The position numbers were made by a program, and so were the translations under genes. 64,000 nucleotides of DNA from Zootoca vivipara (lineage: Eukaryota): positions 78,306,001-78,370,000 of the forward strand of contig NC_083281.1 of NCBI RefSeq assembly GCF_963506605.1, given 5' to 3'. Below the pieces are notes generated by a model. It saw only the letters and a list, made by a program, of their open reading frames with translations. It was not told the origin of the DNA and ran no database searches. How positions within the stretch are numbered: the first letter of the stretch is position 1; every line of letters begins with the position of its first letter. Shown piece by piece: positions 4,052 through 60,282 of the stretch.

Positions 4052-5601
4052 AAATGATCCTGGGAACTGTAGTTTCTTAAGGGGGCTGGGAATGTGCTCC
4101 ACATTTTTCCCACATCAGTTTGCGAAATGCTATATTTGTTCATTTGTTTATTTATTCATTACATACAAAAACTTTACATGGCTTGATTGTAAAACAAACA
4201 AACAAACAAAGCAGATTTTAAAAAGAATAGAATAATAGTATCACGGGGGGTGCAGTTCAAAACATCTATTTAAAACATTCAGAAGAATTAAAACGAACAA
4301 CAATCTGAAAACAGATTAAAATACACCAGCATACTAGATATCTGGGTAGGCTTATCTAAACAAAAAGGCTTTTAGCAGGCCCCAAAAAGAGTAAAGGGTA
4401 GGGGCAATTGCCTGATATCAACAGGCAGTGAGTTCCAAAGTGTTCCCTGCCGCACTAAAAAATGATTGATTACAAATGCAAAACGGGTATCAAGCGATTC
4501 GTATTTCTCCTCATATAACACTTTTTCATACGCACTTTTGCCTAACAACCTCCCCCCTCCCCTTTTGCAAGCAGTTTCCCCTAGTATAACGCATCCTTTG
4601 GGAGCAAGGGTGGGATAGATAGTTAATTAATTAATTAATATTTCGCATGCTATTTCTGTTAATATATGCATTTTATGGATTATTTCCCCATACACATCCT
4701 TGTTTTGGTTGCAGAACTGCATCGCGGCATTTGGAAACACACAGCCAGCGAAGGGCAGCTGTGCTTACGTCAAAGCCTTAGGCAGAGTCACATTAAAATG
4801 TGAATCAACACAAACACCCCCACCTTCACTTTCACTGGGACCATTTGTAAGAGAATCAAAAGAGTTATATGAATAAAATTATAAGAAGAAATACATAATG
4901 AAATACAGATTCTCATAACAGCAGCAGCATAAAAAATATGGGAGTATGGGAGGAGAAAATCAGCAGGAGGGAATCTAAAATACAGAAACAGTGCACAAAT
5001 ACAGAATTTTCTCTATTTCCATAGGTGGCTCTTAAACTCAGCCCCCACAGAAAATGACAGACCCCCCCCCACAGCTCTCACACCCTCCTACTGCAACAAG
5101 TTCCCCTCTCTCCCTGTCTCCCAGAACCAGGAGAGGCATGAAAAGAGCAAAGGAGAGATTGGCTGCAGGAAGGAGCAGTCTCTGATTGCTTGGGGAAAGT
5201 CCTGGAGAGGAGGAAACATAGACAGCTGTGGGGAAACATGAACCTTTAGTCTTGGCAACTGATTTCATGGAGGAATGCCCACCAGAATGGAGCTGCTGTG
5301 CCCATTAGTCCTGACCCTCAGCCGAGTCTGATTTCGCTAATAAAGTGTTAACTCCAACTTTGGATTGTGTGATTACTGACCGGCACGCTCTGCGATGTGT
5401 ATGTTTTTAAAACTTCCAATTTAATTTTGAAACATTTTAGGTTAACTTGTTATTAACATTAGATTTTATCGGTAATTCTACTTTATGTAAACCTCTAAAT
5501 TTTGATGATTAAATGGTATATAAATGCTGTTAAATTCTATTAAAATGATAGGGGCAGTGATGTCCATGAAATGTAAGCCCCAAATCCTCTTTGGTGTGCA
5601 G

Positions 5602-5651
<50 letters not shown>

Positions 5652-5903
5652 TTGTTTATACTTCACCCATCTGACTGGGTCTCTCCAGCTACTCTGGGCA
5701 GCTCCCAACAGAATATTAAAACACGATAAAACATCAGACATGAAAAATAAATTTCCCTAAACAGGGCTGCCTTCAGATGTCTTCTAAAAGTCACATAGTT
5801 GTTTATTTCCTTGACAACTGATGGGAAGGTGTTCAACATGGAGGGCGCCACTACCAAGAAGGCCCTCTGCCTGGTTCCCTGTAACCTCACTTCTCGCAGT
5901 GAG
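5602..5903 (-). mobile_element. L2-type LINE 3' fragment with (TAT)n tail
   Basis: Minus-strand ORF LREVRLQGTRQRAFLVVAPSMLNTFP…FRRHLKAALF resembles the L2 ORF2 C-terminus (RAFSVxAPxLWNxLP) and ends in an (AAT)n array at 5602-5651. Confidence 0.75.
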
Positions 5904-23914: not shown

Positions 23915-24714
23915 CAGGAGGCAAGTGTGGTCCTCCAGGACTCCCTATCTAGCTCTTGGGACCAGGAACAGACTTTAGTCTTTCAAATTTCAGCAGCGCC
24001 CTGTACAAGGCCAAAATTCAGTCCACACACCCCAACCTCTTGCATTCCATTCTGCTCAATTCACTATGCCATAGCTGCCACCCCCCCAGACTCAGTGCTC
24101 AGTGCAGCAGAAGCGGTCATGCTGCCCTAATTCCACCTCTGTTGGTATTTTCCTCCCCAGGTCACAACCCCTCCTGAGCCACACACACCCCAGCACTGCG
24201 TCACACCGTCCTCGGGTGCTTTTGCCTGGTTCAGTTGACACCTCTTGCTTGTCTGGAAGGAGTGTTGCAAGCATAGGAAGTGTGCAGCCTGCTGTAGAGA
24301 AGTAAACACACACCTGTGTTTGTTGCTCCGCCCACTGGCATGGGGTCCCTGGAAGGCTTTCCAGGAGAGAATTGTGGCCCTCAGGCTGCAAATGGTCCCC
24401 CACACCTGACCTGGGAAGAAAATTGATTTTAAGCCTCGTCCAAGGTGATGTTAACATACCCAAGAGTCCTGCTGGGGAAAAACGACTCCCAATAATGGGA
24501 GATGTCAGGGAGTTTTTCTGGCATGGGTTCCCCTCAGAAAAGAGACCCCTAAAGACTTCCAAAAACTTGCCAATTTGTATGTGTACAGCTTGATCAGGTG
24601 GTAAGAGGGATTCAGAAGCAAGCACACAGATTTGCCTTGTCCATTAGTCCAGCATCTTCCCAGCTCAGTGCAAAGCTATGGTTTTCCAGGTCCCTACTTA
24701 ACACAACAGCTTTG

Positions 24715-24835
24715 TCATGCTGGCCACATGACCTGGAAGCTGTACGCCGGCTCCCTCGGCCAATAACGCGAGATGAGCACCGCAACCCCAGAGTCAGTCA
24801 CGACTGGACCTAATAGTCAGGGGTCCCTTTACCCT
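24715..24835 (+). mobile_element. Sauria SINE 3' fragment
   Basis: Near-identical to 18436-18553. Confidence 0.85.
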
Positions 24836-32714: not shown

Positions 32715-34579
32715 TGTCTATTCCAAAACTTTTGCTGGCACTAACAGTATTGGAAACATAATCACGTGCAACTGCCCTGATAGCATCCTGAGCACAAATT
32801 GTCATGAACGTGCAACAAAAATGATGTTTGGGGAAGCACATGGTGAGAAAGTATGGCATTGGGGTCCAGAAACCTAGGACTGCATGCAACCTTACATGAC
32901 ATGAGAGGGAGGAATCAGGAGCATTTTAGTGCAGAAAGGCAGGGCTATTGGCAGTGAGGGAACTTCTACGCTGCCTTCCACAGTCAGAGACAGTATGCAA
33001 GGGTATGTGTCGTTTTTGAGCCCTACTGGCGGTCCTTCAGGATGGGGGAGTGGGTAGAAAGAATTTGCTGAGAGCAGAATGATGGACTCACTAAATGGGC
33101 TTCCGTTTTATCCATGCAGGCAGGCAGGCAGGCGATCCTGACTTATGGGGAGTCCCAGGTCAGAGGCTGAACAATTCTCAGAGCTATCGCTCCTCCTACA
33201 GATCTGCTCAGCGCAGACAGCATCCCACAACTGCTTTATCACACACACATATACAACATCTCAACTTAGTCTCCCTAGCTCTTCAGAATCTCGCGATCCC
33301 AGCCAGAAGCAGGAAGGGAGGGGTTTTTTGAGGGGTGGGGGTACCGTAGAAGAGAGATGAGTAGCCCGTGGACCGTCCCTTTTCTTCAGCTTGCTAGACT
33401 CTAGCTGGCTGTTTGAAGGAAGGAACCGAGTTGATATTCAGAGGGTATCTACTATACTGATCTTAGTTTAAAGGGGATAACTAGGAGGGGGGGTGTTTGT
33501 ATTCGCAGCCTTGTAGAGGCCTCGATCCAGTGCCGCCCGCCCGCCCCCCGCCCCCACTACCCTTGCTGAAAGAGAAATTTGTTTATATATTTTGGACACA
33601 TCTGAACTATACATGAATACTTTTTTTTCCTCCCCAAGGGGGGATAGAAGCAAAGTGTTCTTGCTTGGACTGCATCTGTGAAAGCGGGATTCCTAATTTA
33701 TGCCTCCTTTAAAAAGCAAGCTCGCGTTTTAAAAGTTCTCCAAACCTGTTGAAATAAGCCGTCTGATGGGGGCAGAGCGTTTTCTCTGCATTTTAATTAA
33801 TCTATTTTTTTTTTGCAAGAAAATGACGTAGCTCCCCGATCCAGGTGGGAGATTGCACCCCCTTTAGTCGCCCGCACCCCCCGCAGCACCAGGCCAAGCC
33901 AGCGAAAGCGGGGATTGCCTCAAAAAACTAACGCAAAAAAGGTTCCCCCCCCTCTTTGCGTTTCAAAGACGGTTTAAGGCTGCGACCCTAACCTCGCCTG
34001 CCCGGGAGCAAGCCCAGACGAATCCAATTGGACTTGCTTCTGAGCAGACGCGGTTCAGACTGCGCTGCAAAGGACCTGGTGCTGAGAAACGGCGAGAGAG
34101 GGAAAAGCAAGATCGGAGAGCTTTTCGCGTCCACCGGGCGGGCCGCTCTGAGGATTATCTCCCCAGCCTTTGCTTCCCGGGACTGGAGAATCTGAAACGG
34201 CGCAGCCTCGGCCCAGCCGGTCCAGGTTCGGTTCCCGGGGAAGCCGCTCTCAATCGTTCCCTTCCTCGCTCCTTAACTTCTCCTTTTCTTCTCCTCTTAC
34301 TTTCTTTTTCACACACAGCCTCAAACGGCTTGCCTCAAGGTTTTATTCCATAATTTGGCTCGACGGTTAAGGAAGTCACTCGGGCTGCAATCCTGTATAT
34401 ACAGTGTACACATACACTTCTTTCTTTTTGGCTGCCGGCCTGGCCGTGCCTCCTCAGAATCAAGCCCTATTTAATCCGATGGGGCTTGCTCCTGGGTAAA
34501 GTGGGTTTATGAGTGCAGCCGGACTCTATGGGCCTTACTTGCACGTAGACACACAGAGACTAGCGCCGCTAGCTAAATC

Positions 34580-38441: not shown

Positions 38442-39076
38442 GCTTTGCCTTCCCAGCCGCGAATCTCTAGCGCCCACTATATTTCAAAAGCTGGGAACTA
38501 AAAAAAAAAAAGATTTCACAAGAACTTGGAAACGACTCGGCGAAGAGGAGAGAGGAGGAGGGAAAGGGAGAGAAAAAAGTTGCAGGCTTCAACTTTGTAG
38601 CTAACTTTCGCTTCGCTCTCGTTAGCTCTCCCTGTGTTCCCCCTACTTTTCATTAAAAAAAAAACCGATCCCCCTCCTTCCTCCTCCTTGCCATCCTTGA
38701 TCGCCTCGAGATCCTCAGACGGGTGAACCCCACCAATCGCGGGGTGCGGAGCACAACTCTCGGAGCGCAAGGAGAGGCGGGGGGAGCCTTGGCCAGGCTG
38801 CCCGGATCGTCGCGCAGAGACCGGCGGCTGTGGCGGCGCGGAGCTCGCTCCCGGCTCGCCCAGCTGCGCTCATCCGGCCGCGGTGAGGCCAGGGCTGCCG
38901 AGGAGGAGGCGATCGGCTCGTCTTCGTCGTTGTCGTCCCCCCACCCCAGGGCCGACCAGCCAGACACCCATGGCTTCCCCCCCCCCCTGCTCAGCGCCCC
39001 CCCTCTCCCTCTCTCTCTCACCCCCCTCGCCAGATCTCGCCGGGGATCTCCCCCTCGCGGGAGAAAAGGGACCTAC

Positions 39077-39113
39077 TTTTGGGCAGTTTCCTCGCTCGCG
39101 CCTTGGATCTCAT
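39077..39113 (-). CDS. PRDM16: PRDM16 coding exon 1 (37 nt, MRSKARARKLPK + 1 nt, phase-1 intron follows)
   Basis: Minus strand reads ATG AGA TCC AAG GCG CGA GCG AGG AAA CTG CCC AAA A|GTAGGT. This matches the vertebrate PRDM16 N-terminus MRSKARARKLAKS and its 37-nt first coding exon. The paralog MECOM is MRSKGRARKLAT. The upstream leader ACAATGCTTGGGAGATGAAGATAG matches my recollection of the human PRDM16 5'UTR, and the exon lies in a CpG island. Confidence 0.93.
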
Positions 39114-39190
39114 CTTGACGGCGGAGCGGATCCCTCCTTGAACCCGCAACAGCTCTGCCGCGCTATCTTCATCTCCCAAGCATTGTCAGT
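39114..39190 (-). other. PRDM16: PRDM16 5'UTR (approximate; TSS not determined)
   Basis: Sequence directly upstream of the ATG, resembling the recalled mammalian PRDM16 leader; contains upstream ATGs. Confidence 0.7.
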
Positions 39191-40575
39191 TTGGACACCT
39201 TCGCACATGCGCACAGAGCATTCAATCTGACACCCTCTCCGGGGCCAAAAAAACTTTCCAATGTATTCATCACCATCAGGGTTGGGGTTGGTGTGTGTAT
39301 GTGTGTGTGGCTTTTTTTTTAACCTCCCCCCTTCTCTTCCGTGGTCCTATCCTCTTCTTCAGATCACTTATCTCTGCCCCCACCTCCTCGGAGCAGAGCA
39401 CCATCCCAGCCTTTCCTCCTCCTCTCCCCCCCCCCGCCACTTCCCCTGATCTGCCCCTTTAAGAAAAAGCGACCTTTCTCTCTCTCCCTAACCCTTTACA
39501 TGCTGCCCTTCCCCAGTGGACAATATTTAAAGATGGAAGGTAACATCCAGGAAGAGGTGACTTTGCCTTTTTTAAAAAATTCGGACGGTGGTTTCTATGT
39601 TATGCTGGGGTGGGACGGGGAGGGTTGGGGGTGTATGTGGCTGGTTTTTTGGGGGGGGGAAGGGGGAATAACTGGCCCATTGCATGCTGTACTTTACAGG
39701 TCTAATTCTTATTTTCCTAGCAACCGGTCCATTGCAGCTGGTCAATTGCACGCTGCCCTTTTGCAGATCTGTTATTATTTTCTGGTCACTAGTTAGCCGT
39801 CTTTTTCAACCAGCCAACTGCACGCAGCACTTTACAGGTCTAATGATTTTGCTATTATTTGGCTATTATCTGCTATTCTCATCAATGGGGTAGTCGCGAC
39901 GGGCTCTCTCCCCCCCCCCCCCCGCCATATATATATAACCCGCTTTCTTCTCGCATGATCCTCTGCATGCTTACTTGCGAGTAAACGCCCCACCTTCTTC
40001 CACAGGGGCTTACTCTTCTCTCCCTCCCCTCCCCCCTCCACCACCCATTCCGGGCACTTGTGAATAGCTGGATGTCTGATCTCCCCCACCCCTCCCTAAG
40101 GCCAGGTTTACTCCGAAGTTTCTTTTATTGATTACAGTGGGATTTACCTCCAGGTAGGCAGGTTGAGGAAGATCGCGGCCGAGGTTGACTGCAGAAGCTG
40201 TGGCCGTTTCCCTACTCGGCGGGGGCTTATAGAATTACCAGGGTTGCACAGACTTCTTCTACCTTTTACAATGTCTTTCTCCGTTTTGCGCCGTTCCCGA
40301 AAAACGTGCGTCCCCTTCCATTCCAGTGCATTTAAGCCAATCTGGCAGGCAAAATGAAAACTCCCCCTACACACCCAAACGACTTTCGTTTTCCTAACGA
40401 TCGGTGCATTCTTTCCCACCCTGTCCCCAATCCATTTACAATAAAAATTGGGTGGGTTGGGGGCTTTCGGTTCTCTCCCCCGGTTCCCCCCCCCCACCAG
40501 CCGGTTTAAACGATTCTGTCTCCATCGTGGTGCTTGTTTAAAACACGCTAAAACCTGAGCGATCGTGGGTTCTTG

Positions 40576-41781: not shown

Positions 41782-42526
41782 AACAGGGCAAGGGGCGTCC
41801 ACACACACACACACCAGCAAAATAAAAAACAAAAAAGCAGCTTAGCAGCCGACCGGCAGGTGGAAGATATGAGGAGAGAATAAAGTCTGCGGTTGAAAAC
41901 TGCATACTTTATTACTATAATAAAGTACAATGAAATAAATTATTATTAAGATTATAGAAGATTTCCCTTTTTGTATCTAGATTTATATTAATCCTGTTGT
42001 GGTCAGGGCAAAGGAGGTCTGAAAACATTTGTTATATTTTAGGGGAGGGGGGGGGCGGGAAAGACAGGTAACAAACCAAGTCCCCTTCTCCATTTCTTCA
42101 TTCTGTGCTTGAGGTTCAGTTACTCCAACGCCTCGGGATTTAACTCAATCACGTTCTGGGATTCCGCTCCCCGCCTGTCCCGTTCTGTTTTCACAAACTT
42201 GTAATAAAGCCGGTAATTCTAAAACCCATTCAAATAATAAAACAAAGTCTGTCGAACTTTTTTTTTTAAGGGGTTGGTTGCTTATTTATCAAGTAATTCA
42301 TAAAATGGAATTGATTTTAAGTGTAGGCTCTCAAAGCGCGCCGCGCGGGGGGGGGGAATAGTTATTTGTCCAGAATTATTTATAAATGCGTTTGAATCTG
42401 AATTCTGATGATATTGAGTGTAAGAGTACGTTGGGTTGTTTGTTTGTTTTTTAATAGGATTGGAAGGGAACTTCCGAATCAATGTTTTCAAAGTGGAGAA
42501 ACCAATAGCTGCCTCTTCCCAGCTAA

Positions 42527-42731
42527 AAGCAAAATAAAAAAATTCCTTCAGTAGCACCTTAAAGACCAACTAAGTTTATATTTTGGTATGAGCTTTCGTG
42601 TGCATGCACACTTCTTCAGATACACACGAAAGCTCATACCAAAATATAAACTTAGTTGGTCTTTAAGGTGCTACTGAAGGAATTTTTTTATTTTGCTTCG
42701 ACTCAGACCAACACGGCTACCTACCTGTAAC
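42527..42731. mobile_element. Truncated Penelope-like element in inverted (hairpin) configuration
   Basis: Perfect 76-bp inverted repeat (42527-42602 / 42623-42698). Motifs GTAGCCGTGTTGGTCTG and GCACCTTAAAGACCAAC are typical of squamate Penelope-like ends. 12-bp TSD CCCAGCTAAAAG (42518-42529, 42732-42743). Confidence 0.85.
42586..42623 (-). ncRNA. Minimal type-I hammerhead ribozyme motif (Penelope-associated)
   Basis: Minus-strand RNA: GUAU-CUGAAGA-A-GUGUGC-AU-GCACAC-GAAA-GC-UC-AUAC. It has both core boxes, stem I (GUAU/AUAC), stem II and a palindromic loop-less stem III (AGCU). Confidence 0.7.
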
Positions 42732-51500: not shown

Positions 51501-52864
51501 CTGCTTCCCCCAGCTGGTTTAAAACCGGCATTTATTGCAGCAAACAATAATATCTATTAAATGAATACAGAGCGTTTAAGCCAAAGCGCGTTTTGCCTCT
51601 CCAAAAAAGCTCCCCTGGCTGCCTAGCCGGATTTGAAAAATAAATGCCGCAGCGGTGAGGCTTGCCTCCGAGTAGACCCGCTGCCGGCCAGCTGCCGAAA
51701 ACCTGTAACGACGTTCAGTTATTTCCAGCAAACGGCTGCGGAGAATGGTTTAAAATGAAATAAAATAAGAAGAGATGAAGACATTCTTAAAAGGCGAGGA
51801 GCAGTAAGCATTTGGGTTGGTGATCCAGCAGAAAGTTCCACTTTACTCCAACCTTACACAGAAATCTTCAAAGTCTGCCTCTACTCAGAAGTAAACTGAG
51901 TTATGTAGGGGTTTATGACCCGGAAAGCGGGTACAGGATCTGGATGGCAGCCTTAGAGCTCTGATCTTAGAGGGGCTTACTCATAAGTAAATCTGCATTC
52001 CCTTCAGGCAGGGTGGCGCGCGCCTAGGTATTTCTTTATAAAAAAAGGGTTGCAGCTTTAAAGGGAAAAGAGAAACCAAACGCACAGAGAAAATATATAT
52101 GTTCAAGGAGTCCCAAGAGAGCAATTACTCCCAGAGAGGCAAGTTTTTAAAACAAGGAGGCGACGGCCCTCTTTTTAATTCGGATTAACACCTCCCGCCA
52201 ACGAGCAGCGACGGAATTCGCGCTTGACTCCTTTCCAAAGATCCCGCGCCTCCCTCCTCCCCGAGGCAGTTTGGCGAGCCGTCGACCAACCAGGCAACCT
52301 GGCGCGGAATCGGGGCCCTTTCTCCCCAACTTGCTCCCACCATCCCCACCTCCCTCCCTTTCTCCTGCTGCCTGTTCTCGCTAGCCCCTGCCGCCTTTGC
52401 GCCTGTATAATTATTAGCCATTAATTGGGTTCAGGACCTCGTTCACCGGCGGTGGGGTGGGGTGGGGAGGATGGTGACCCAAGAACTCCCCAGAAGAGAC
52501 GTGGAGGAGGGGGTGGGGGGAGAAGCGAAGGCAGGATCCAACGATTCCTTTGAGGGCAATGCCCAACTATTAAAGGGGTGGGTGGAAAACTTCTTTAGCT
52601 GCAACAAGGGACCAAAGGGGGGGAATTAAATTAAGGCACCGCTCCTGGCCAAGGAAAAAGGGTGCTTTTGGGTCTCCCCCTTCGCTTCCTTTTATTTTCA
52701 ATTCAGGTTGTTCCGTGCCAGGAGCTTACTGGAACAGCCTGGCCGAAGGGGGAGGAGGAAGGGACATGAACTACACAATCAAAAAAAGGGCGTGTGGAGA
52801 AAAAAGTTTCGCTAGGCTGCTCTGCCGCTTTGCCAGGAGGGTGTGTGCGCGCACTGCAGAAGAT

Positions 52865-54726: not shown

Positions 54727-56788
54727 TGTGGGATGGAACACTGGGGCAGACAAGTCACAACAATTCCTAGAGTGTCCACTAACAGGAACTCACCTGGAGG
54801 GACACCTGACTAAGTTCCTCCAGATATGCAGATGAGATGGATTAGCTGGGACAAAAGCCCCTAGCCCAGGGGTGTCAAACTCAAATTCATCAGGGGCCGC
54901 ATCAGCAGTTTGGTCACCCTCAAAGGGCCGGTTGTGTCTGTAGGACTATGTGTCCACTCTTTATTATCATAAATTATTGTCACTGCATTCAATTATTACT
55001 GTTTTTTGTAATAATGTAAGCTCATTCCCGCCCCCACGCGGATCACATTCCTGCGTCGTGGCGCGTGTGTGGGAGGGGATGTAAACGAGGGAAATTTGAA
55101 CAAAAGGTGGGGATTGACGGCTTGGGGGGGGCCTCAACTAAACCTTTGGCAGGAAGGAGAAAGCCACTGCTGGGATTAAAAACCTGCAGATGGAAAGAGG
55201 GCTTCCCTCTCCCGCCCTGCGCACACCCAAACCCCGCTAGGCAGGATGCCACACGCTGTAACCCACCCCATGCTTTGGAGAGGGGCAGGAACATGCGGTG
55301 CAGCGCCAACTCCCTGCTTTGCTTTTGCATCCTCCCTCCTCAGCGCCAGAGTCCCTTCCCCTCGCGCTGAGGGAGGGCAGCGGATTTCCCGAGGAGGAAG
55401 GCGGCGGCAGCCCCAGCGGACGTGCATCTTCGCCTCAGAGCTGCTCTTTCCCCCACCCGCGCTGTTGTCGTCTTCGCCGCCGCCTCTCCCTACCGGGACT
55501 GCAGGCAGAGGAGGCTTGAAAACCTCCCCCCCCCCAAAAATCCCCTCCCACCTACTCAAACCGCGAGGCGACTCCATCTGGAGCCCTACATCACGAGGGG
55601 CTGAGAGGAGGCGGCGGCAGAGCGGGAAGAGCAGGAACCCGTGCCGTCGCCGCCTCCTCCCTCCCGGCCGCCCCCCGGGGAGCAGCTCCGCCGGAACTGA
55701 GAAGCCAAAGGGCGGCTTGGGGGTGGGGGGCAGAGCAAAAGCCAGGCACCCTCCCGAGTGTCTATGAGGAGAAAACGGGGGAAGAGGGAAGAGAAACCCG
55801 GCTCCATCAAGAGAGCGGCTGTTGCGCTTCACCTACTTCCCCCTCAGGCTCACTCCGCGTCCCTTTCGACCGCTCGTTCGCCCACCTCCCGGATGCAGCC
55901 GAGGAGAGGAAGGGAAGCGGCGGGCGGCGGCTCCCCAGTGCCGCCTCACTCACTCTCGGAGACAACAGCAAAGCCCGCCCAAAAAAAATCCAGCGCTGCT
56001 CCGTCCCGGCACCAACTTTGCCGGCAGCGCCTGTAGGGCTTTCCTACCTCCTCGGCGGGCTTCCTCCTCCTGCTGCATCTCACTTCCCCATCTGGCCGCT
56101 GTGCCACCGCCTCCCTCAGCCTCATTCGAAATTGAAATTCCCTAGCCAAGGCCGTCAGCGCGGCTCCAGCGCCCTGGCCTCCGCCTGCAGCCCCGCCCCC
56201 GGTCTTGACCCTCGGCCAATCGCAGGCTCCAGAACTACTGTCAGCGGTTATTGTCGGCGGCGGCTACGCGGGCCACATGACGAGGTCTGGCGGGCCGGAT
56301 TAGGCCCCCGGGCCTTGTGTTTGACACCCGTGCCCTAGCCAGCAGCCATTCTCTCTCTTAGCCTTCTCTCCTTCGATGGGAACACATCTCCAGAGAATCT
56401 CCAGTTAGGATGGTTCTCCCTCTTGGCCTGCAGCCAAGAGAGAGACCAGATGGAGCCTTACTCTACTAAGAAGACTCCAGATGTACATAGTTGTAACTTT
56501 TCTACATAAGCCTGCCTTTCTGAGATTATGCTGTTAACTCAGGATGAAACTGTAAGTAAACTCTATCTTATTTTATGAAAACTGTGTTGTGTATTTCTTT
56601 TAAGAGGGACAAAAGGGGACTTTGCTAGGAAGTATAATATTGTACAGGTTTTAGCAAACCTGAATGCACATGCTTTGCTGCGCACAAAAGGGGAATGTCA
56701 CTCTGCTGATATTGGAAGCTTGCTAACACAAGCTTGGATAGGATCTATCTAATAATATATCCTAATCCACATCCCTAACATTCCCACA
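54727..56788 (+). mobile_element. Solo LTR (about 590 bp) interrupted by a hAT insertion
   Basis: TG…CA ends with 7-bp terminal inverted repeat TGTGGGA/TCCCACA, 5-bp TSD AAAGT (54722-54726, 56789-56793), TATA-like GGGACAAAAG and AGTAAA poly(A)-like signal near 56555. Confidence 0.75.
54867..56332. mobile_element. 1466-bp non-autonomous hAT (Charlie/MER30-like TIR) with CpG-island-like cargo
   Basis: TIR CAGGGGTGTCAAAC / GTTTGACACCCGTG, perfect 8-bp TSD CCCTAGCC (54859-54866, 56333-56340), no transposase similarity. Confidence 0.92.
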
Positions 56789-59733: not shown

Positions 59734-59942
59734 TGGTCAGATAAGGCAGTTTCTTGTGTTCCTATTTAACACACTCTACAGTCTTCTATTGGTTCAGTTT
59801 GACAAAGAAGTTGATATTTTAAGCATAGGATGTCTTTATGAAATATCCCCCCCTTAAAAATGATCCAGTTTATTCTATTGTCAGTTATTTTCTCTCTCCA
59901 CCCCATCATTTTCTTCCACAGTTTTCAAATTATAAATGGTAA

Positions 59943-60282
59943 AGGTTAAGGGACCCCTGACCGTTTGGTCCAGTTGTGGACAACTCTGGGGTTGCGGCGC
60001 TCATCTCGCTTTACTGGCCGAGGGAGCCGGCGTACAGCTTCCGGGTCATGTGGCCAGCATGACTAAGCCGCTTCTGGCGAATCAGAGTAGTGCACGGAAA
60101 CACCGTTTACCTTCCTGCTGGAGTGGTACCTATTTATCTACTTGCACTTTGATGTGTTTTCAAACTGCTAGGTGGGCAGGAGCTGGGACCGAGCAACGGG
60201 AGCTCACCCCGTCACGGGGATTCGAACCCTGATCAGCAAGCCCTAGGCTCTGTGGTTTAACCCACAGCGCCACCCGTATCCC
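59943..60282 (-). mobile_element. Sauria (POM/Squam1) SINE, full length
   Basis: Perfect 13-bp TSD TTATAAATGGTAA (59930-59942, 60283-60295); similar to the 17708 copy. Confidence 0.93.

Follow-up and report, generated by a model that had tools for sequence, protein, structure and literature searches.

A candidate start-site block identical at MECOM and an overlapping upstream reading frame in the leader of lizard PRDM16

The leader of a gene on the minus strand of Zootoca vivipara contig NC_083281.1 raises the question whether ribosomes can be passed from one short upstream open reading frame (uORF) to the next, and finally onto the main start codon, by successive ATGA overlaps of stop and start codons. 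The stretch analysed, hereafter the window, comprises 64,000 nucleotides (positions 78,306,001 to 78,370,000 of assembly GCF_963506605.1), and plain numbers in the following are window positions. The original prediction had described four uORFs in this leader, two of them chained to the PRDM16 start by such overlaps, and had proposed a translational relay that sets the dose of full-length PRDM16. In the following, uATG1 denotes the ATG at 39183, which opens uORF1, uATG2 the ATG at 39172, which opens uORF2, and Met1 the ATG at 39113. The features are compiled in Table 1.

Table 1. Features of the PRDM16 start region (window positions).
Feature	Positions	Strand	Remarks
PRDM16 exon 1, coding part	39077..39113	minus	37 nt, MRSKARARKLPK plus first base of Ser13
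uORF2, 20 aa	39110..39172	minus	G at -3; out of frame, 59 nt to Met1
uORF2 long form, 32 aa	39110..39208	minus	weak context (C at -3, T at +4); above projected human starts
Projected human primary CAGE peak p1@PRDM16	~39157..39171	minus	would begin inside the uATG2 codon; presumed offset
Second MECOM-shared stretch	39162..39170	minus	9/9 identical; just past the A of uATG2; ATG itself unshared
uORF1, MLGR and stop	39169..39183	minus	A at -3; stop overlaps uATG2 as ATGA
TURBS-motif-1-like pentamer	39174..39178	minus	61-65 nt before main ATG; likely chance
Projected human secondary CAGE peak p2@PRDM16	~39179..39205	minus	would end where the 35-nt block ends; presumed offset
35-nt block, candidate transcription-start/core-promoter element	39179..39213	minus	35/35 identical at MECOM (MDS1) exon-1 region
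Main-frame uORF, 11 aa	39186..39221	minus	weak context (T at -3); outside the 35-nt block; above projected starts

As judged by sequence matches, the gene is PRDM16. The window lies on G000:C6 of the genome, and a PR-domain exon found on the same strand, 374 kb downstream, has a PRDM16 structure as its best match (E 1e-15, versus 2e-9 for MECOM); its 98% identity with a Podarcis database entry marks the gene as that of a lacertid-type lizard. The coding part of exon 1 is directly followed by a GT donor (39076-39075), and joining it to exon 2 at G000:C6:78174103, at a distance of 171 kb, yields an in-frame splice with the product MRSKARARKLPKSDNEIVNNM..., which matches entries from Anolis and gecko. 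On these matches, the ATG at 39113 is the genuine PRDM16 start. The MRSK N-terminus is absent from several database models of PRDM16 (P0001, P0002, P0004, P0012, P0027 and P0031, both lacertid entries included), which suggests that annotation frequently overlooks the small coding exon 1.

The four uORFs and both ATGA overlaps are indeed present on the minus strand where they had been placed, including the long form of uORF2 from the in-frame ATG at 39208 and the main-frame uORF of 11 aa; beyond what had been described, the frame of uORF1 can also be entered at the ATGs 39276 and 39270 (35 and 33 aa). The uAUG of uORF2 is out of frame with the coding sequence and its stop lies at or beyond the main AUG, which makes it an overlapping uORF (uoORF). 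This stop occupies c.2-4 of the PRDM16 coding sequence, and it had rightly been pointed out that the junction at Met1 hangs on the AGA codon of Arg2; the overlap at Met1 is likely a coincidence of this codon.

How unusual is such a chain? In 20,000 dinucleotide shuffles of a 112-nt or a 187-nt leader, with the real start of the coding sequence retained, a two-link ATGA chain arose in 2.8% and 4.6% of the cases, respectively, and a uORF with its stop on the main start in 29% and 28%. The PRDM16 leader has no more uATGs than the shuffles (P 0.41 for 112 nt and 0.59 for 187 nt), and 6 of the 2089 ATGs of the window show such a two-link chain within 112 nt. The chain is therefore uncommon, which speaks for a relay, yet it is within chance for a pattern that was chosen after the fact, and it is not compelling.

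A relay in the strict sense would mean that terminating ribosomes start anew on the spot at each ATGA, from uORF1 to uORF2 to PRDM16, and thereby set the dose in the manner of viral termination-reinitiation. A pentamer at 39178-39174 resembles motif 1 of a TURBS, and its complement is found in the 18S sequence of the genome. Copies of the rDNA were noticed at G000:C17:42.20-42.29 Mb (spaced ~15-17 kb) and at C18:6.19-6.85 Mb. In-place restart has been described for viral TURBS and needs motif 1 together with a stem that presents it (PMC6393290). The pentamer lies inside the TURBS span of 45-80 nt before the restart codon (PMC6393290), both overlaps exist, stop and restart codons share bases and thus lie within the ~20 nt given for TURBS (PMC10275272), and the ATGA at uATG2 recurs in human, where uORF2 has a counterpart that also begins with Met-Lys (see below). 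However, the overlap at Met1 is kept neither in human, where the frame reads through, nor in the paralog MECOM, and a like pentamer stands 25-90 nt upstream of 247 of the 2092 ATGs of the window. In the folds, moreover, the pentamer is predicted to be mostly paired, with unpaired probabilities of 0.03-0.33 at four of its five positions in the two longer folds, no motif 2*/2 stem that would present it is predicted, and the folding z-scores of the leader range from 0 to +1.0, with one of -0.3, which amounts to no folding signal. With the 18S loop of this genome, the best duplex is at another place, and reinitiation after short uORFs takes place only downstream of the stop, according to a review (PMC10275272). 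We therefore regard an in-place relay as very unlikely, and the double ATGA does not look like new biology. Of the original proposal, the idea that some translational control is exerted through the leader remains plausible, as human retains uATG2 together with its frame and a Ribo-seq catalogue lists the human ORF, but termination-reinitiation into Met1 is not supported, given the human read-through, the absence of the links in MECOM and the unconvincing TURBS.

Unlike the ATGA chain, the identity of all 35 bases of the block with the MECOM paralog is, on the alignment, far beyond chance. The PRDM16 leader has two matches in the genome, the window included, and the sole other one is at G000:C5:15957702-15957736 (L002 1501-1535). 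This locus is the first exon of MECOM: the exon reads MRSKGRARKLAA, and the PR exon matches MECOM with an E-value of 9e-24. The coding exons 1 of the two genes are identical at 28 of 36 positions only, against the complete identity in the block, and among 307 blast hits between the window and the 80 kb around MECOM exon 1, 15 of which are single-copy in both, the block is the best collinear one. It is thus non-repetitive sequence that was kept in place between the paralogs, and it probably marks a very old regulatory element at the first exons of both genes. The block contains the ATGs 39208 and 39183, which in MECOM open frames of 20 and 19 aa that end ~185 and ~165 nt before the MECOM start. 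The counterpart of uATG2 is missing in MECOM and the start reads ATG CGA, so that neither ATGA overlap is present there. Identity at all bases and codon positions, with different reading frames behind, points to a nucleotide rather than a peptide constraint, which probably acts at the base level as part of a promoter, and the block is likely the transcription-start platform of PRDM16. Searches for TATA, CCAAT, YY1 and PBX consensus sequences gave nothing in the start regions of PRDM16 or MECOM, no GC box was found beside the PRDM16 block, and an Rfam scan of the MECOM locus L002 had no match. E-box-like, NRF1-half, TGACA and GATA-like words are common to both start regions, but prove nothing.

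A second collinear match between the two regions, of 33 nt and 94% identity, links window 52406-52438 (minus strand) to G000:C5:15950299-15950331, which is 13.3 kb (PRDM16) and 7.7 kb (MECOM) upstream of the first exons. It contains many TAAT/ATTA words of the homeodomain type and is, by its sequence, a candidate for a duplicated enhancer; a genome-wide search with a 111-base query returned the self match alone at E 0.01. Interspersed repeat copies with 80-96% identity are also common to the window and the MECOM region (window 17700-18560, 23500-23920, 24700-24830, 42520-42730, 59930-60280 and 5600-5900).

Is uORF2 more than a sequence feature of the lizard? The Ribo-seq ORF table of PMC10032668 lists a human PRDM16 uoORF, c1norep25 (chr1:3069195-3069290), of 31 aa, beginning with MKI. 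Its tail CDPRR... aligns with the lizard frame past the uORF2 stop (stop-DPRR...), and because of this match the human Met1 can be placed 65 nt after the start of c1norep25, compared with 59 nt in the lizard, in equal frame. Human has Cys where the lizard uORF2 has its stop, and c1norep25 reads on for 31 nt into the coding sequence, stopping on c.29-31. The part “norep” of the name presumably stands for a call in one study only. The expectation that uATG2 also occurs in the human leader is thus borne out, with start and frame retained, as a conservation that comes from two species, lizard and human, in which a frame match alone would be expected in one of three cases by chance. The catalogue entry gives 0 MS studies and a negative PhyloCSF and classes c1norep25 as primate-young and de novo (PMC10032668); the comparison with the lizard suggests that its start codon and frame are much older than this label. 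A conserved uORF2 peptide was considered as well and rejected, since lizard and human have in common only three initial residues, some scattered ones and the frame dictated by the coding sequence, and PhyloCSF is negative.

Which transcripts contain uATG2 is a matter of where transcription starts. For the human peaks we assumed an offset of 83,436 between hg19 and hg38 at PRDM16. FANTOM5 gives, in hg19, p1@PRDM16 at chr1:2985760-2985774 and p2@PRDM16 at 2985726-2985752 (PMC5094855), so that, with this offset and counted from the A of uATG2, p1 starts at +1 or +2 and reaches +15, and p2 covers -33 to -7. If these projections apply, the main transcripts are without any uATG, and the minor ones contain uATG2 and in part uATG1, which would fit the human Ribo-seq call; the ATGs 39221 and 39208 fall in neither projected human transcript, and the 11-aa uORF is probably outside the mRNA altogether. 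It is therefore likely, on human CAGE data and the assumed offset, that the main PRDM16 mRNA is uORF-free and that a minor isoform carries a repressive overlapping uORF. The original prediction had counted a transcription start below about 39170 as evidence against itself, and the major human start is probably of this kind, again by human data and the assumed offset. This projection is the weakest link of the argument. Among public sequencing runs, 22 of the 24 rows listed contain some of the stretch, with a share of just 0.08 for the 6 RNA rows; in four runs (3 DNA, 1 RNA; all contigs) inspected on 38900-39162, the part 39035-39162 was uncovered and the RNA run gave zero, which proves nothing. 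Mouse Mecom has start clusters at chr3:30509653-780 (692 tags) and 30509787-847 (192 tags), with positions that are unanchored to sequence.

We consider it somewhat more probable than the contrary that the locus combines a paralog-identical start block, a uORF-free main transcript, a minor transcript in which uORF2 represses Met1, and an incidental overlap at Met1. How much of the mRNA is free of uORFs would then depend on the choice of the start site: with its 5' end inside uATG2, the main transcript would lack any uORF, and the minor one, slightly longer, would include both uATG1 and uATG2. A ribosome initiating at uATG2 of this longer mRNA would finish at or past Met1 and, being unable to scan back, would be lost for the full-length protein. 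Loss of ribosomes through an overlapping uORF is established uORF behaviour, which we here apply to PRDM16; as uORF2 ends at or after Met1, it should repress Met1 on the longer transcripts. A ribosome that initiates at uATG1 would stop one base past the A of uATG2 and may reinitiate at Met1, 55 nt later; since uORF1 ends at this position, forward reinitiation would skip uORF2. Ribosomes that leak past both uATGs would reach Met1 as well. The first ATGA overlap would thus be a bypass rather than a relay, and the second one incidental. The projected leader before uATG2 on the minor transcript is short, with 7-33 nt, and this may limit the use of uATG2. PRDM16 is dosage- and isoform-sensitive, and a uoORF on one of two adjacent start-site isoforms would be a handle on the level of the full-length protein.

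Several elements of this reading are already known. Overlapping uORFs are common, with an oORF in 15.0% of human MANE leaders (PMC11057154), uORFs in leaders that diverge by transcription start lower translation (PMC4965872), an overlapping uORF and the main ORF exclude each other (PMC10275272), and the human ORF has been catalogued. What is worth following is therefore the paralog-identical start block together with uORF2, not the double ATGA. In the open literature consulted, nothing on uORFs of the PRDM16 leader was found; the supplements of PMC11057154 have no PRDM16 row, and the text of 10.1101/2020.06.29.165878 names neither PRDM16 nor MECOM.

Could the uATGs be passengers of a conserved DNA element, with no translational role of consequence, and the Ribo-seq call low-level translation of a minor transcript? 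The number of uATGs at chance level agrees with this, as do the two uATGs that belong to a block without a single base change and open unrelated uORFs in MECOM, the weak contexts at 39221 and 39208, and a major projected start that excludes all uATGs. However, uATG2 lies outside the 35-nt block and is absent from MECOM, yet lizard and human share it together with its frame, and the human ORF is called translated; we find it unlikely that the uATGs are passengers throughout.

The repression of Met1 by uORF2 could also have a second consequence, in that ribosomes that have translated uORF2 pass Met1 and reinitiate at the in-frame Met21, similar to C/EBP, so that the choice of the start site would set an isoform ratio and not just a dose. 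The Met21 product would keep the PR domain and lose residues 1-12, which bind RBBP4/NuRD. In the spliced lizard frame, the next AUG downstream of Met1 is that of Met21 (c.61, A at -3), which is present in all 17 matches that begin with MRSK (8 named genera, with mouse isoforms making up 9 of the 17), counted among the 29 long hits listed, of 35 found. The uORF2 stop lies between the two start codons, 56 nt before Met21 in the lizard and ~29 nt in human, so that the locus has the C/EBP-type arrangement in which a short uORF terminates past the main AUG but before a conserved in-frame AUG further downstream. After 20-31 codons and with a gap of 29-56 nt, however, reinitiation is expected to be modest, and it would be confined to the minor transcript. 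Two database entries (P0019, P0034) do begin at Met21, but may be truncated models, and the exon-2 start of MECOM has no Met in its first 20 residues. On the other hand, C/EBP-beta LIP is driven by an equal layout (PMC4552494), and residues 1-12 of PRDM16 are required for RBBP4 binding (PMC6379669). Altogether, a switch to Met21 appears rather improbable. It would matter because the first 12 residues, all from exon 1, are the NuRD contact (PMC6379669), and the leader would possibly govern a short N-terminal truncation. Carried further, the start region might be a cassette, frozen since the PRDM16/MECOM duplication, in which a shift of the transcription start by ~20-30 bases picks the protein: the downstream start would give the full-length, NuRD-binding form, the upstream start would add an amniote-wide uoORF that leads to Met21 and to a hitherto unrecognised, PR-containing and NuRD-blind isoform, and uORF1, by stopping on uATG2, would rescue Met1. 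This is a speculation that we hold to be decidedly improbable.

Some further features of the window were noticed. Positions 55001-56500, ~16 kb upstream of PRDM16 exon 1, resemble a CpG island (GC 0.61-0.67, CpG o/e 0.66-0.81); the open frames of this stretch are of low complexity only, and it is possibly a promoter or an enhancer. Two smaller CpG-rich patches (12751-13250 and 33751-34250) lie within intron 1 of PRDM16. By eye, window 39900-39660, which precedes exon 1 by 500-750 nt, shows a direct repeat of ~20 nt at ~39845-39825 and ~39705-39685 and a cluster of TGACC/ATTGA-type words, and this combination of repeat and words is possibly a conserved upstream element.

How does the favoured combination of start-site choice and a repressive uORF2 compare with known systems? 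One counterpart is c1norep25 itself, which agrees with uORF2 in its start relative to exon 1, the beginning MKI, the frame versus Met1 and a stop at or after Met1; the lizard form differs in its 20 aa and its stop at c.2-4, compared with 31 aa and c.29-31 in human. As in repressive uoORFs in general, the uAUG is out of frame and the stop lies at or beyond the main AUG, and as in leaders with TSS-dependent uORF inclusion, the projected starts, separated by some tens of bases, would decide whether the uAUG is included (PMC10275272, PMC4965872, PMC11057154 for both). Unlike in these systems, the start region of PRDM16 is identical base for base with that of a paralog, and the stop of a 4-codon uORF falls on the start codon of the overlapping ORF. 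With the TURBS of caliciviruses and influenza B, the locus shares the AUGA overlap and a motif-1-like pentamer at a fitting distance, but it differs from these viral elements in that the upstream ORF is short and lies in a capped leader, no motif 2*/2 stem is predicted, and the overlap is not conserved (PMC6393290, PMC10275272). In case of the C/EBP-beta uORF and LIP, a short uORF likewise carries ribosomes past the main AUG and a functional N-terminal part is removed, as would happen here, whereas the putative Met21 product of PRDM16 would lose only 20 residues, and on the minor transcript only (PMC4552494). At the DNA level, hyperconserved “leaders” are frequently promoters (PMC9456764), and like these the 35-nt block is conserved leader DNA, here over projected start sites; in the supplement, the sole Mecom row is NM_007963, with a printed leader unlike the exon found here. 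Finally, two paralogous conserved noncoding pairs of PRDM16 and MECOM have been described (chr1:3057640 and 3086383; PMC3595034), which likewise are noncoding sequence retained between the two genes; these pairs are intronic, and the start-site block is not among them.
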